From a virus (lineage: Duplodnaviria > Caudoviricetes): a stretch of DNA of 25,072 nt. Positions 4,204 to 25,072 of the stretch are shown here, piece after piece (the stretch's first letter is position 1; every line of letters begins with the position of its first letter). The notes beneath the pieces were generated by a model that saw only the letters and a list, made by a program, of their open reading frames with translations, was not told where the DNA came from and ran no database searches. Made by a program: the position numbers and the translations under genes. The DNA lies in IMG/VR virus record IMGVR_UViG_3300032330_000011, positions 1-25,072 of that record; one strand, 5' to 3'.

Positions 4204-4878
4204 ATGTGTATCTGCAAGAAATGTAGCGTTGATAAACAATTGGATGAGTTCCAGTTGGATAAAAAGCGCAACAAACATTACACAACTTGCAGGGCTTGCC
4301 GTGTGCAAGCTGACCGTGAACGCAGACAAGCTAATCCTGAAAAGTATCGGGAATACACACGCAACTACCTTAAAGAATGGCGTGTTAAAAATCCTGAAAA
4401 GCAATCGGCTATTGACCAACGTTATCATGCAAAAAACGCTGAACAACGTTGTGCAAAAGCTAAAGCATGGCGTGAAGCCAACCCAGACCGATGTGCTGAA
4501 AATGCAAAATCATGGGCGCAACGGAATCCAGAAAAAGTTAAAGAGTCAGCAATAAAAGGTGGACGCAAATATCGGGAAACACATCCTGAGTATCAAACCA
4601 CTTTTTATAAAGCCAACAAACAGCGTTATGTTGCGGCAAGGGCTAGACGTAGGGCGGCACAGGAATCTGCTACACCAACATGGTTAACTGCAATTGATAA
4701 AGCTATGATTCAAGAAATGTATGATGTTTCTGAAGCAAGATTTATTCAAACTGGCGTAAAACACCATGTTGACCATATTGTCCCAATTAACGGCAAGAAT
4801 GTGTCAGGAATGCACGTTCCTTGGAATTTACAAGTTATAACTGCTCATGAGAATTTGAGCAAAGGATGGAGATTCTAA
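4204..4878 (+). mobile_element. Free-standing HNH (homing) endonuclease gene
   Basis: N-terminal CKKC..CRAC Zn motif, basic helical repeats, C-terminal HHVDHIVP...GMHVPWNLQVITAHENLSKG HNH motif; composition unlike flanking structural genes. Confidence 0.85.
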
Positions 4879-6832: not shown

Positions 6833-7492
6833 ATGAACAGCGGAATATATCAAATTAAAAATAATGTCAGTAATGGCGTATATTTTGGTCGTTCTATTGA
6901 TGTAGCGGATAGGTTGTCGCACCACAAACAACAATTAAAACGCAATGTTCATGTTAACAAGCGTTTGCAACATTCATGGAATAAACATGGTGAGCAAGCG
7001 TTTGAGTTCAAAATGGTTTGGGAAGAAACGCCAGACAAGTTAGAAGAATTAGAAGGTTTTATTCTTGAGACTGTTTGGGGCAATGAACGGCTATTTAATC
7101 ACCACAAGTTATCTGCTGGTGGCTTTATGCCTAACAACAAATTAGGTTGTTTTCCAAGGTCAGAAGAAACTAAAAAGAAAATGAGTGTTGCGTTTAAAGG
7201 CCGTGAGTTTTCTGAGCAACATAAACATAAGATTGCTGTTGGGAAAATTGGTTTAAAAGCAAGTGACAAAACTAAAGAGAAAATGTCAGACGCAAGGATT
7301 GGCAAGGCAAGGCCACAATCATGGCATGACAAAATAGCTAAATATAGGGAAAACAATCCAAACCCTATGCAAGGCAAGATTAGCCCTATGAGAGGTAAAA
7401 AATTCCCTACTATTGCTTGTGAGCATTGCGGTAAGGAAGCCTCAAAAGGAAATTACTTACGTTGGCATGGAAATAATTGTAGGAGCAAATAA
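6833..7492 (+). mobile_element. Free-standing GIY-YIG homing endonuclease gene with NUMOD3-like repeats
   Basis: SGIYQIKN..GVYFGRS..RL..H catalytic N-terminus; SEETKKKMS / SEQHKHKIA / SDKTKEKMS repeats; C-terminal CEHC..H..NC. Confidence 0.88.
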
Positions 7493-8306: not shown

Positions 8307-9287
8307 ATGGCTGTGCCTTATGACATTGTTAGCAGAGCGCTAAAGGACATTGGTGCATTGGAAGCTGGTGAGACTCCTACTCCAGACGCTGCAAGAGATG
8401 CGTTTGAGATGATGAATGACATGATTGACCAATGGTCAAACGAAAACATGATGGTTTTCAATGTCACAGAAATTATTTGCCCTGTTATCGCTGGTCAAAC
8501 CCAATACACAATTGGCCCTAATCCATCGACTTTAAACTTTATTGGGGCGTCTTTCACAGGCTCAATCACGGGCAACGTTTTAACCGTGACAGGCATCAAT
8601 TCAGGCGCATTGGCCCAAGGTCAGACGCTAAGTGGCACAGGCATCACGCCTGGCACAAAGATTACTCAGTTTTTGACTGGCGCTGGTGGCAACATTAACG
8701 AGACTGGTACATACCAAGTCAACATTTCCCAGACAGTAGCGTCCACAACCATTACTGCTTACTACCAAAAGCCTCTAAACATTGATTCAGCTTTTGTGCG
8801 TGTTAACACCACTTCTAATGGTCAACCAATCACAGGCGGTGGTTTGGACTACCCAATGTCGGTTTTGGCTCTCCAAGACTATGAAATGATTGGCTTGAAA
8901 ACCCTGAACGGCCCTTGGCCTAAAGCGGTTTACTTCAACCCAGGCGCTGATTCTGGTAACTTGTTCATTTGGCCTAGCCCATCACAAGGCGAACTCCACT
9001 TGTTTGCCAATACATTGTTCACACGTTATGACTCAATGTATGAGGACTTACAGCTTCCACAAGGCTACTCAATGGCTCTTAGGTGGTGTTTGGCAGAGCG
9101 TTTGATGCCCATGTATGGCAAAGCCTCTGCAACGCAAATAACGATGATTCAGACGTTTGCGGGTCAAGCTAAAGCTACTCTCAAGCGCACAAATATGTCG
9201 CCATTGCAGACAGCACGTTATCCTGATGCGTTGTTGACGGGTAAAGCGAAAGATGCTGGTTGGATACTTACGGGTGGTTTCCTGTGA
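8307..9287 (+). CDS. P22 gp4-like head-to-tail adaptor with an inserted beta domain
   Basis: N-terminal [16 protein letters not shown]...[13 protein letters not shown] resembles P22 gp4; C-terminal [10 protein letters not shown]; lies upstream of the gp10-like gene. Confidence 0.75.
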
Positions 9288-9295
9288 GTTTTATT

Positions 9296-9304
9296 TGATA
9301 CAAT
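9296..9304 (+). promoter_or_regulatory. Putative extended -10 promoter in front of the third endonuclease
   Basis: TGaTACAAT in the 43 nt gap, 26 nt before ATG 9331. Confidence 0.4.
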
Positions 9305-9330
9305 GTGATTGTTCTTACAAAGGAGCAATC

Positions 9331-9915
9331 ATGGAACGCAAAGAGATAAACGAAAAGCAAAGAGAATGGCGCAAAATTAGACTGGAAAAGAAAGCTAACA
9401 ATATAGCTATCGGCAACCCAGGTCGCCCCTCAAATACACCTGATGTATTGTGGGAAAAAGTAGATGTAAAACAGCCACATGAATGTTGGCTTTGGAAGGG
9501 ATACAAGAATGCAGAAGGATATGGTCGGACATGGATTAATGGCAATGGGTATTACGCTCATCGTGTCATTTTTAATCTTGTCCATCCAAATCTCATTCAG
9601 CTTTCTGCGCCAAAAAGCACGCATGATTCAGGATTTTTACTGCATACTTGCGACAATCCATCATGTTGCAATCCATTGCATTTGTTTATTGGCACACACG
9701 CTGATAACATGGCTGACAAAGTTGCCAAAGGTCGTTCTCCAGATTTTAAAAGTGGTCGAGGCCCAAGGTGCAAACTCACTATGGATCAAGCCAATGAAAT
9801 CCGAGAAAAGCGCAAAAATGGCATATCAGCACGACAGCTTGCAATTGATTATCAAATCAGTTTGCCATCCATTAAAACGCTACTCGCTGGCAAGTCTTAC
9901 GTTCTAAAGGAATAG
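9331..9915 (+). mobile_element. Free-standing HNH homing endonuclease gene with C-terminal HTH
   Basis: Start reassigned to ATG 9331 (AAGGAG RBS). CWLWKG..GYG..AHRV..LHTCDNPSCCNPLHLFIGTHADNMAD motif, then KLTMDQANEIR..SARQLA HTH. Confidence 0.88.
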
Positions 9916-22303: not shown

Positions 22304-22854
22304 AATTTTCCCTTTGCTTTATCTTTGGCGGCAATAACTTTGATCTGCCAGGCTTTGTCACCATCACAAGCGGCATAGGCTACTTTGTAGGCAACCTTAA
22401 GTTCGTCTTGTGTTGTGGCGTTTTCAATGGCGGCAAACAGTTCTGTCATGCTGTCAGGCTCAATGGTTGACTCAGGCTCAACAAAAGAGGGCAGATCGTC
22501 ACCGTTGTAGATGTACAAGCCAAGGCCATGCAAGCTAAGTGCTTTGGTCATGCAACGCATAATGGCGGTGTTAACTTGGAAAGCGTCTGGGTTAACGATG
22601 GCTTTGTTGCGGTGATCCATCACGGGTAACTGGCAAGTCATTGGCTTATCAAACATGGTGACTGTGACCCACACCATTGCTGTTCCGTTGATGTCCATGA
22701 AGCATTTGTCGCCAAACATCTCAACCTTGAATGTGGCTTTATCGTCAGCTTTAAGTGCTTCAGCCCATGCCCAAGCCCATGACAGATAAGTCAGATTGGC
22801 TTTTTTCTCTGTGTGTTCGTTGACGTTCAACGCCAGTAAGTTTGCGATTGTCAT
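22300..22854 (-). CDS. Sak3/DUF1071-like single-strand annealing protein
   Basis: LTYLSWAWAW, LPVMDHRNKAI, VNTAIMRCMTKA..HGLGLYIY.GDDLP motifs; adjacent to the exonuclease. Confidence 0.85.
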   Translation of the reverse strand: MTIANLLALNVNEHTEKKANLTYLSWAWAWAEALKADDKATFKVEMFGDKCFMDINGTAMVWVTVTMFDKPMTCQLPVMDHRNKAIVNPDAFQVNTAIMRCMTKALSLHGLGLYIYNGDDLPSFVEPESTIEPDSMTELFAAIENATTQDELKVAYKVAYAACDGDKAWQIKVIAAKDKAKGKL

Positions 22855-23036
22855 GCTTCTTCCTTTAGATAGGCCGTGAGGCGTTTGATTCGGTCTGAGT
22901 GATAGTCAGCCATGCGCTTGGCGTATTCCTGTGCGCTAAGAGCGTCCAGTAGCTTGCGTTGGGCTTCGTTGAGTTCCTTGGCAGCCAGTTCTTTGGCTGA
23001 TGGCAAGCGGAAATAGTCTTTGAGTTGGTTAATCAT
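22851..23036 (-). CDS. Hypothetical coiled-coil protein (61 aa)
   Basis: Start reassigned to ATG 23036 (GGAG RBS, TAATG overlap with the upstream peptide ORF). Confidence 0.7.
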   Translation of the reverse strand: MINQLKDYFRLPSAKELAAKELNEAQRKLLDALSAQEYAKRMADYHSDRIKRLTAYLKEEA

Positions 23037-23128
23037 TAAGCTCTCCATGCCAGTAATACGCCCCAACCGCCAAAGATGACGATTGCCAATGTCCACTCAA
23101 TCAGGGTTTGAATAATCTTAGATTTCAT
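23036..23128 (-). CDS. 30 aa single-TM peptide (not in ORF track)
   Basis: MKSKIIQTLIEWTLAIVIFGGWGVLLAWRA*; fills the gap and overlaps both neighbours. Confidence 0.65.
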   Translation of the reverse strand: MKSKIIQTLIEWTLAIVIFGGWGVLLAWRA

Positions 23129-23390
23129 TTTGTTCTTTCAACATACGAGCGTGGTGAATCTTGACTTCAGACATGATGTGGTCTAAGTTCTCTTTGTCGA
23201 GGTCATAGGTAATGTCGTTACCTGTCTGGTCGTAGATAAACACATCGTAAATTTCCGCTGTGTTGTGGTCGTGGGGAAGATTGAATTCTGGTGGGTAGTA
23301 GTCATAGCCCACACGCACCTTGTCTAAGGTTTCACCGTCATCGTAAGTGACGTATTCATCAAAGTAATAGCGGAGTTTGTAGTCAATCAT
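23118..23390 (-). CDS. Acidic, Tyr-rich hypothetical protein; first gene of the leftward operon
   Basis: 90 aa; TAAGGA RBS. Confidence 0.7.
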   Translation of the reverse strand: MIDYKLRYYFDEYVTYDDGETLDKVRVGYDYYPPEFNLPHDHNTAEIYDVFIYDQTGNDITYDLDKENLDHIMSEVKIHHARMLKEQNEI

Positions 23391-23534: not shown

Positions 23535-23687
23535 ATGGACAAACAAAAGGCTATCACCTTAGCTGGCTCACAAAGTGAGCTTGCACGAATCTTGGGAATC
23601 ACCAGGGCAGCGGTGCATCATTGGAAAGTTATCCCAGAAGGCCGTTTATATCAATTGATGGTGTTGCGTCCTAATTGGTTTGTATAG
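23535..23687 (+). CDS. cro: Cro-like HTH regulator (50 aa, not in ORF track)
   Basis: MDKQKAITLAGSQSELARILGITRAAVHHWKVIPEGRLYQLMVLRPNWFV*; classic Cro-type HTH at the divergence point. Confidence 0.85.
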   Translation: MDKQKAITLAGSQSELARILGITRAAVHHWKVIPEGRLYQLMVLRPNWFV

Positions 23688-23693
23688 TAAGAT
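23664..23693 (+). promoter_or_regulatory. Putative promoter for the structured RNA / replication operon
   Basis: TTGCGT-18 nt-TAAGAT; predicted +1 near 23700, at the foot of the first hairpin. Confidence 0.45.
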
Positions 23694-23699
23694 TATGGA

Positions 23700-23812
23700 A
23701 ACACTTGGCGGTGTTAAGGTAGTAGGGTTACACATGAAGTCTGCTGGTTACTACGCCAGTCCGCCAACATCCGCAAGGGTGAGACTTCAGGTGTAGCCCT
23801 TTTTTTTGGGCT
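23700..23812 (+). ncRNA. Structured three-way-junction RNA, C4/CI antisense-like
   Basis: Closing helix 23724-33/23791-800 plus 23735-42/23782-89; hairpin GCTGGT-tactac-GCCAGT; linker CCGCCAA; GNRA hairpin CATCC-gcaa-GGGTG; U tract after the stem. Confidence 0.75.
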
Positions 23813-23816
23813 TTTT

Positions 23817-24470
23817 ATGAGAATTAAAAATTGGTCAAAGTTTCAGCACTTCAAGGACAGGCGGCCTCCTTGGGTGAAGTTGTACCGTGACATTCTTGAT
23901 GACATTGAATGGCATGAATTAGACCCACTTGCGGCAAAAGTATTGGTCATGTTATGGCTGATTGCCAGCGAGGATGAAGGACGCATTCCTGACACAAAAA
24001 CGCTTGCTTTTCGTCTTAGATTGACAGAAGTTAAAACTAAAGAAGTCGTTATCAAGCTGTCTCATTGGTTGGAACAAGATGATATCAACGTGATATCAGA
24101 AGGATATCAACTTGATCTACCAGAGACAGAGACAGAGAGAGAGACAGAGAAAGAGAAAGAGACAAAGGCAAAAGCGCCTGAAGGCGTATCACCAGAAGTT
24201 TGGGAATCTTTTGTTAAACAAAGAAAAACCAGTCGAGCAGTCATAACGCCAACAGTTATTAAATCAATTCAACGTGAAGCTGACAAAGCGGGTTGGACAC
24301 TTGAGCAAGCATTGGCTGAATGCGCAGCTAGAGGTTGGCGTGGATTTAAGGCTGATTGGGTAGCTGATAAAAATTTAAGCAAGACTGGTCAAATGAATCA
24401 AAGGGTGATTTCTGGTCTTACCCGTGGACTTATTGGAGGCGGCTTAAATGTCAAATTACTTGGAAACTGA
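23817..24470 (+). CDS. Phage replication initiator (lambda O-type organisation)
   Basis: IKNW.KFQH...RPPWVKLY N-domain, ETETERETEKEKE linker, C-domain W..F...RK....T...RGWRGFKADW; follows cro. Confidence 0.8.
   Translation: MRIKNWSKFQHFKDRRPPWVKLYRDILDDIEWHELDPLAAKVLVMLWLIASEDEGRIPDTKTLAFRLRLTEVKTKEVVIKLSHWLEQDDINVISEGYQLDLPETETERETEKEKETKAKAPEGVSPEVWESFVKQRKTSRAVITPTVIKSIQREADKAGWTLEQALAECAARGWRGFKADWVADKNLSKTGQMNQRVISGLTRGLIGGGLNVKLLGN
24081..24167 (+). repeat. Iteron-like repeats plus purine tract: candidate replication origin
   Basis: GATATCA at 24081, 24092 and 24103 (11 bp period), degenerate GATCTAC at 24114, then an AGAGAC/AGAGAA purine-rich run. Confidence 0.65.
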
Positions 24471-24843
24471 TTTTTGCACCCAAGACCAAGGTCTTGATTA
24501 CATCTTTGGTCGCATGATGGCAATTTATGGCGCACCGTTTAACCGTCATTTTGATGGCCTTGACCCTGAGTTTGTTCGCCAGGAATGGAAAGGGCAGATT
24601 GGCAGATTTCTGACATATCGCCCAAGCATGGACTTTGCGATTGCCAAACTTAATGAAGAATTTGTGCCAAGCGCCATTAAATTTAGAAATCTTTGCAACC
24701 AAGGCCCAGAAATACCTGTCAAGCCATTACCACAAATTGAACGCAAGATGACCATTCACGAAAAGATTGAAAGTGATCGTGTCAGGTCAGAGGCATTGGC
24801 GAAATTGGCAGCATTAAAAAAACAATATGGTGGGAGATCATGA
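24448..24843 (+). CDS. Hypothetical protein at the helicase-loader (P-like) position
   Basis: 131 aa; GGAGG RBS; F.PSAIKF.NLC resembles loader/inhibitor-type motifs; mostly synteny. Confidence 0.55.
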   Translation: MSNYLETDFCTQDQGLDYIFGRMMAIYGAPFNRHFDGLDPEFVRQEWKGQIGRFLTYRPSMDFAIAKLNEEFVPSAIKFRNLCNQGPEIPVKPLPQIERKMTIHEKIESDRVRSEALAKLAALKKQYGGRS

Positions 24844-25072
24844 ATGAGTTGGCTCTTTTCGCAGGCGCTGGTGGAGGAATACTTGGCGGGAAACTTCTCG
24901 GATGGCGAACAGTCTGTGCCGTTGAATGGGAACAATACCCAGCAAGCGTACTGTGCGCCAGACAAAATGACGGGCTTCTCCCGCCTTTCCCGATTTGGGA
25001 TGACGTACAAACCTTTGACGGAAAACCGTGGCGAGGAATTGTTGACGTTGTATCGGGAGGCTTTCCTTGCCA
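24840..25072 (+). CDS. DNA (cytosine-5)-methyltransferase, 3' truncated (not in ORF track)
   Basis: MNELALFAGAGG (motif I)...VCAVEW...IWDDV...VDVVSGGFPC (motif IV catalytic PC); ATGA overlap, GGAG RBS. Confidence 0.93.
   Translation, partial: MNELALFAGAGGGILGGKLLGWRTVCAVEWEQYPASVLCARQNDGLLPPFPIWDDVQTFDGKPWRGIVDVVSGGFPC

Follow-up and report, generated by a model that had tools for sequence, protein, structure and literature searches.

In the temperate phages that are known to have them, C4 and CI RNAs work together with proteins, downstream target sites and processing by the host; termination in phage P4 is Rho-dependent. In the plasmids pT181 and pIP501, RNA-RNA pairing decides termination ahead of the replication initiator, through an antisense RNA that is encoded on the opposite strand and is fully complementary to its target. 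Among the phage RNAs, C4 is described as trans-acting in PMC8546580 and PMC5320573, the latter adding that it is freed from a precursor by RNase P and that its specificity rests on a few loop letters. In the P4 CI system, as PMC4825925 reports it, transcription ends prematurely upstream of the replication genes by way of an upstream complementary site, seqA. The same paper presents IsrK of Gifsy-1 (RF01394) as a short terminated RNA that acts in trans on its own read-through transcript. IsrK turns translation on, and it is the counterpart of the seqA part rather than of the C4 part. PMC5737381 takes the c4-2 motif (RF02944) to be, in all likelihood, a remote homologue of an RNA already known.

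Here we describe a phage leader that we regard as a variant form of the C4 and CI RNAs: a C4 with permuted hairpins, joined directly to its own targets and to a putative intrinsic terminator, which is undetected by any Rfam model. In the literature, taken without the c4 and c4-2 supplements of PMC2864571 and PMC5737381, we found no account of this permuted form.

Setting and structure of the leader

The window (the whole stretch of DNA analysed, 25,072 nucleotides) belongs to a record of 25 kb of phage DNA that is 72% complete. Sak and YqaJ recombination genes lie leftward in it, and a Cro-like gene (50 aa), the leader element, an O-like initiator and a cytosine methylase follow one another rightward. 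The distance between cro and the nearest frame of the leftward side is only 144 bases, and no repressor-like frame lies in that gap; the initial annotation had remarked that the region has no cI, and no cI-type repressor was found in the window or, searched for by its S24 domain, in 38 relatives. Two overlapping plus-strand frames at 24840-25072 start 4 bases apart (24840 and 24844) and are open to the window end, one of them being a C5 methylase. Endonuclease VII-like, homing and HNH genes (4204-4878, 6833-7492, 9253-9915) are interleaved with the structural genes.

The element is predicted to be a promoter-driven leader of about 108 bases (approximately 23699-23807), with transcription starting at about 23699-23700 (Table 1). 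It lies directly on the initiator gene, as first proposed, and the ATG at 23817 stands 17 nt past the closing helix. After the P1 record, the linker is named a' and the loop b'; the b' loop hairpin and the a' linker together form the C4 core.

Table 1. Features of the leader and of its two neighbouring genes
Feature	Position	Strand	Basis
Cro-like gene, 50 aa	23535..23687	+	Pfam P22_Cro, E 1e-9
Leader sigma-70 promoter, predicted	-35 TTGCGT 23664-69; spacer 18 nt; -10 TAAGAT 23688-93	+	Conservation in relatives
First hairpin, showing target site a1 (TTGGCGG, 23705-11)	23700..23715	+	4/5 stem pairs compensatory
Target site b1 (GTAGTA), 7 nt past a1, adjoining the closing helix	23719..23724	+	Covaries with loop
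Closing helix, 18 bp, 5' arm	23724..23742	+	Fold; covariation
Hairpin carrying antisense loop b' (TACTAC, 23749-54)	23743..23760	+	Fold; covariation; P1 C4 match
Antisense linker a' (CCGCCAA), single-stranded	23761..23767	+	Covaries with a1, 4 further letter sets
GCAA tetraloop hairpin, 3' of a'	23768..23781	+	Fold; helix covariation
Closing helix, 3' arm	23782..23800	+	Fold; covariation
AGCCC-T8-GGGCT hairpin, lineage-limited	23795..23812	+	Fold; alignment
U8 tract straight after the closing helix; predicted intrinsic termination site	23800..23807	+	Conserved T run
Replication initiator (O-like), heading the replication operon	23817..24470	+	PHROG 678, E 6e-19; PHROG 26426, E 4e-15

All the sequences named in the initial annotation (TACTAC, CCGCCAA, GTAGTA, TTGGCGG, AGCCC-T8-GGGCT and the ATG) are present where it had placed them. 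The a1 hairpin, the closing helix, the loop hairpin and the GCAA hairpin appear in both the minimum free energy and the centroid folds, which bear out the 18 bp helix, the two hairpins (one GNRA) and the U tract described there. The closing helix, 23724-42 with 23782-800, contains one A-G mismatch. The fold of 23699-23808 has a free energy of -44.5 kcal/mol (z -3.9), equalled by none of 200 shuffles.

The promoter-like site is conserved among relatives. Of 91 distinct relatives, 86 have a -10 match that ends 9-19 nt ahead of a1 (shuffle rate 0.24), and 53 of these 86 have TTG at -35 (shuffle rate 0.13); in the window the leader promoter was not listed by a strict consensus scan. As the -10 ends 6-7 nt ahead of the first hairpin in 52/86, the RNA likely starts with the a1 hairpin. 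At the other end, at least seven of eight positions after the closing helix are T in 99 of 100 close members, and the family's conserved terminator is likely the closing helix followed by U8. The AGCCC-T8-GGGCT hairpin, which the initial annotation had set up as a competing structure, does exist here and could cover the G-rich ribosome site (23808-10) once the closing helix is open. As the terminator of the family it was rejected: it forms in 65 of 100 close relatives (65% paired, with no compensatory change), a U run stands behind it in 17 of 100, and it occurs in none of 24 divergent members. The statement that the initiator has no Shine-Dalgarno sequence was too strong, as GGG (23808-10) lies 6 nt ahead of the ATG. 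GGG, GGGG, GGAG or GGA occupies the ribosome-site position in 91/99 relatives; the initiator ATG does have a G-rich ribosome site, though a weak one.

The element had also been tied to a cro-to-initiator gap. This tie does not extend to the relatives: there the leader brings a conserved promoter-like site of its own, and the genes found upstream are diverse, Cro-like in many relatives and unrelated in others. The downstream frame, its N-terminal sequence read by eye, falls into at least four initiator-like types; otherwise it is nuclease-like or a small gene. The element is therefore a portable module that runs from the promoter through the leader, the U tract and the G-rich site to the start codon. 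In six loci (L031, L048, L052, L053, L076 and L205) nuclease-like frames, homing-endonuclease-like by eye, lie between leader and initiator and use the start codon of the leader.

Other structures were seen nearby. A structured leader of another kind (GGCTAGG...GAAAAG...CCTGCC) takes the same slot directly ahead of the initiator ATG (L018:2780-2891, L033, L039, L056, L067, L075 and L076), and at least 12 of the 75 relatives fetched through the initiator carry it; 8 of its 19 pairs are compensatory among seven sequences, and six loci scanned gave no Rfam match. L076 has both leaders in tandem with one gene between them. In L062 and L063, the region upstream of an initiator-like gene is taken up by tandem repeats, each about 34 bases long. 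Upstream of the leader in L140 (538-595, minus strand) there is a weak match to a Betaproteobacteria toxic sRNA (30.6 bits, cut-off 50). In four sequencing runs, all consisting of contigs, two contigs overlap the element in the window, X20 (151 nt, from an RNA library, covering 23658-23808 and ending at the U tract) and X16 (from 23729 into the initiator); because single contigs cannot show ends, both are neutral on where expression ends.

Comparison with C4, CI and related RNAs

The claim of a C4/CI-type RNA stands on a direct comparison with P1 C4. The core is identical to that of P1 C4 at 24 of 26 bases (score 35), the best background score in 1654 window tiles being 23 and none of 20000 shuffles reaching 35, and the gap between a1 and b1 is 7 nt in both. 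As in C4 (RF01695), there are a long closing helix, a tetraloop hairpin and two single-stranded antisense segments, and as in P1 (Rfam RF03163, c4-a1b1) a1 is displayed in a hairpin loop. The order of the parts differs. Here the closing helix is followed by the loop hairpin, the linker and the tetraloop hairpin, whereas the C4 consensus, P1 and P4 have the closing helix, the tetraloop hairpin, the loop hairpin and the linker. The position of the tetraloop hairpin 3' of the linker would explain the missing matches to the C4 model.

The Rfam check that the initial annotation had suggested was run and returned no C4, c4-2 or c4-a1b1 match to the window. Apart from chance hairpin or terminator matches, no Rfam family matched the window, either at gathering score or at E up to 10. 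Among 40 members there was no C4 match at E up to 10 and only chance hairpin or terminator matches; as controls, the RF01695 model scored 68.8 bits on P1 and 74.9 bits on P4 CI. The c4-2 model (RF02944), which lacks a positive control (attempts to obtain one matched 0/151 and 0/23 genomes), had no match in the window, in 21 carrier genomes or in the 40 members. The c4-a1b1 model (RF03163) comprises two hairpins, the second showing a1, whereas the element has the a1-displaying hairpin only; neither the window nor the 40 members matched this model. Likewise, the isrK model (RF01394) had no match here. As the element differs from the C4 family in its Rfam model score and in the order of its parts, it is not filed as a member; it would work like C4 and CI and probably descended from them.

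Further differences concern the targets and the output. The a1/b1 sites lie 0-1 nt from the RNA here and 66 nt from it in P1 C4. In P1, C4 acts on downstream a2/b2 sites over the icd ribosome site and controls an antirepressor; the element has neither a2/b2 in the window nor icd/ant and, unlike P1 C4, has a U tract at the foot of the helix and would control an initiator operon. The likeness to P4 CI includes a C4-family fold, an RNA encoded inside the leader that it would control and, as predicted here, termination ahead of replication genes; a seqA-like upstream site is present in the same leader, ahead of the replication genes, as in P4 CI. P4 CI also has a downstream seqC, with no seqC-like site in the window, and its hairpin order is different. 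The predicted terminator of the element is the RNA's own closing helix, unlike in P4 CI. In comparison with pT181 and pIP501, regulator and target are here one same-strand RNA, with 7 + 6 bases paired. The interpretation given in the initial annotation is partly supported; the switch may serve immunity, attenuation or copy control, as proposed there.

Covariation among relatives

Loci fetched through the initiator numbered 80, of which five were too short, leaving 75. The element was found in 55 of these, directly before the initiator in 49 and with a gene between in six. A second search pattern consisted of the two outer helix arms alone and took no account of loop or linker; 111 of the 120 loci that it gave were members. 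Pooling gave 100 distinct sequences, 82 of which were aligned. The helices pair in 99.7% of the cells (99.4-100% for each of the four), and compensatory changes are seen at 12 of the 32 pairs; the outer arm carries no information in this alignment because the search pattern fixed it. The long-range pairs a1:a' and b1:b' form in 98.7% of the cells against 91.9% after shuffling, with 8 of 14 pairs compensatory, and neither the helix nor the long-range covariation was reached in any of 500 shuffles. Helices and both complementary pairs thus covary in the intergenic regions of relatives, the check proposed for the bipartite loop and linker pairing, which is borne out. The same holds for the display of TTGGCG in a hairpin loop, since the a1 hairpin folds and four of its five stem pairs are compensatory.

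Distinct letter sets were also counted, to limit the effect of relatedness. For b, 15 of 18 sets pair fully against 5.2 when permuted (0/20000). The other three are the window itself, which misses at its outermost position, L134, and L155, where the alignment is offset. For a, four of five sets pair fully (p 0.007). The b classes are connected by G-U intermediates (9 U-G and 5 G-U cells at two b pairs), which indicates pairing of RNA. At least 18 b letter sets occur in the close family, plus 20 in the divergent members. As three helix positions are about as variable as b, diversifying selection on b is unsupported.

Divergent members were searched with a covariance model built without the long-range pairs. 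Scoring 100/103, 100/121 and 100/120 pattern loci together with one genome match gave at least 26 divergent loci at 52-106 bits; two of the pattern scans were mostly chance, with members making up 6/100 and 5/100. In the 24 members that were parsed, 16 different outer arms keep 17-19 pairs, and a U tract follows the closing helix in 24 of the 26. Of 20 distinct divergent loops, 16 form 6 bp or more with the b1 of the same leader, compared with 2.8 when permuted (0/3000); in the metagenome matches the pairing of a was imposed by the pattern and that of b was free.

The fold, the a':a1 and b':b1 pairing and the U tract at the helix foot are therefore properties of the family, and the leader is a real, strongly covarying regulatory RNA, far beyond chance. 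A DNA-level element, such as an origin hairpin or inverted repeats bound by a protein, would suit the position next to the initiator gene and the invariance of the arm GGGTTACAC in the close family, but the G-U intermediates, the tetraloops, the U tract on one strand and the 16 arm sequences with pairing kept make it very improbable.

Proposed control of the replication operon

Because b1 lies at the foot of the closing helix and b' about 24 bp off, the covarying pairs would need another fold or two molecules. The reading that we favour, and consider probable, is that a rearranged C4-type RNA carrying its own targets serves as a self-made transcription attenuator of the replication operon, in which finished leaders stop new transcription. 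Folding predicts that, as long as the nascent leader lacks the 3' arm of the closing helix, its a1 and b1 would be paired in cis to a' and b'. The 5' arm would be held in this way, and polymerase would pass the U tract into the initiator gene. Leaders that form the closing helix would end at about 23807 and expose a' and b', which their own a1 and b1 could not reach in that fold. Once released, they would attach to the a1 and b1 sites of transcripts still being made, which could then no longer pair in cis and would be terminated. The phage would thus make initiator on entry and cease to do so as leader RNA accumulates. A second phage arriving later would likewise be shut off if its b letters were the same, and would escape if they differed.

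Folding at nascent lengths is consistent with these steps, the folds being equilibrium folds and not a kinetic simulation. For ends at 23768-23786, a1:a' has a probability of 0.44-0.78 and the 5' arm is tied up; the closing-helix fold wins only from an end at 23789. Across the family, the probability exceeds 0.5 for a in 73 of 82 members and for b in 44, as against none of 82 for b in a control with mismatched 5' modules. The window itself has a value of about 0.27 for b1:b' in cis, and 38 of the 82 members are below 0.5. When a1 and b1 are blocked in the calculation, folding goes straight to the C4 fold. In the full-length leader the closing-helix fold is more stable by 10-16 kcal/mol, so the cis trap may be short-lived. 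The U tract is kept while the helix letters change, which counts for the attenuator, as do the core shared with the trans-acting C4, the promoter-like site that sets the 5' end at the a1 hairpin, the precedent of P4 CI and the single copy in each genome examined.

Judged from the alignments, covariation fits pairing in cis and in trans equally well. A kinetic attenuator acting only in cis, in which a1:a' and b1:b' are the antiterminator within one molecule, read-through is fixed or speed-dependent and released leaders are inert, shares this support, along with the cis pairing predicted at nascent lengths and the lack of a second target in our search. We consider it rather unlikely, as a simple antiterminator needs neither a C4 core displaying single-stranded a' and b' nor an a1 held in a hairpin loop, and both the core display and the looped a1 are kept across divergent members.

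Two divergent members without a U tract, L483 (same element as L555) and L473 (same element as L556), lie unparsed before an initiator-like ATG. In the a1:a' state they form hairpins between the 3' arm and the ribosome site, of -7.5 and -13.1 kcal/mol. Their folds predict control at translation with the opposite sign, and in this they would oppose the sign of the attenuator. Translation might then be activated in trans in the manner of IsrK, for which PMC4825925 gives the precedent: the 3' arm would cover the ribosome site of the read-through mRNA until a short leader binds a1/b1, flips the fold and turns translation on. Such a hairpin is possible at -5 kcal/mol or better in 71 of 99 close members. 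As a layer common to the family it is not supported, since 19 distinct arms with U tracts pair with their own ribosome site no better than with swapped ones (p 0.29), nine of the 19 own pairings being weaker than -2 kcal/mol; a value of p 0.027 is obtained only once the two U-less members are included. There is no compensatory change, and the conserved output is the U tract. We therefore hold activation in trans to be unlikely for the family.

Another reading takes the leader as a stand-alone small RNA with a leaky terminator and main targets elsewhere, in phage operons, rival phages or host mRNAs, a1 and b1 modulating only its own folding. P1 C4 does act on a2/b2 outside itself, and the P1 record, in which C4 and its sites are annotated, gives a1/b1 only as putative sites. 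Against this, no second bipartite target, a2/b2-like or seqC-like, was found in the window, and looser matches allowing G-U pairs, two in the genome G005 and one in G015, are not shared. A look-alike in the leftward operon (TTGGCGG-N7-GTATTA, 23073-23054, minus strand) was rejected as a second a1-b1. It forms the last part of a short coding frame (...IFGGWGVLLAWRA), most of its variation among 10 relatives falls on third codon positions, and the copy in L064 does not follow the loop. As the element also always adjoins the start codon of the replication operon, we judge a stand-alone role to be quite improbable. On the minus strand at about 23040-23140 there is a short hydrophobic frame, previously unlisted, that ends ...IVIFGGWGVLLAWRA and is conserved in 10 relatives. 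For the listed frame 22851-23096, the start is probably later than its GTG.

The carriers of the leader were also surveyed. The 38 carrier records (24 + 14), of which 20 are at least 90% complete, yielded neither a tyrosine integrase nor an S24 repressor domain, and neither a resolvase nor ParA was found in the 24. P4 integrates, whereas no integrase was found in the leader-carrying phages. G005 is classed as a provirus, and a Pfam scan of 49 of its frames gave no integrase. The same genome (L311:11105-13983) has a reverse transcriptase beside a gene with an Mtd domain, the layout of a diversity-generating retroelement. Each of 24 genomes examined has one copy of the leader. Plasmids gave no match; of 50,697 phage records two match, both uncultured and without RNA annotation, and three pattern matches in a collection of genome contigs include two real ones, both on short contigs of metagenome-assembled genomes.

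A broader proposal remains tentative. The attenuator would then belong to a widespread phage clan that has no cI, integrase or partition genes and that uses a protein-free replication switch of about 110 bases, in which one leader is repressor, target and terminator and yields more of itself by repressing. The 6-base loop could set dozens of immunity groups, serving superinfection exclusion or a non-integrated carrier state, and the U-less members would have been flipped to a translation activator.

The general logic is already known from P4 CI. What the locus adds is a permuted C4 on the replication operon of common uncultured phages, with no repressor or integrase found there, and an antisense RNA fold in the course of being rewired. 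Since its natural alleles come in sets that differ in 6-base specificity, the leader is a candidate for a compact, orthogonal RNA switch, and it offers a direct way to ask how such phages limit replication or exclude their kin.
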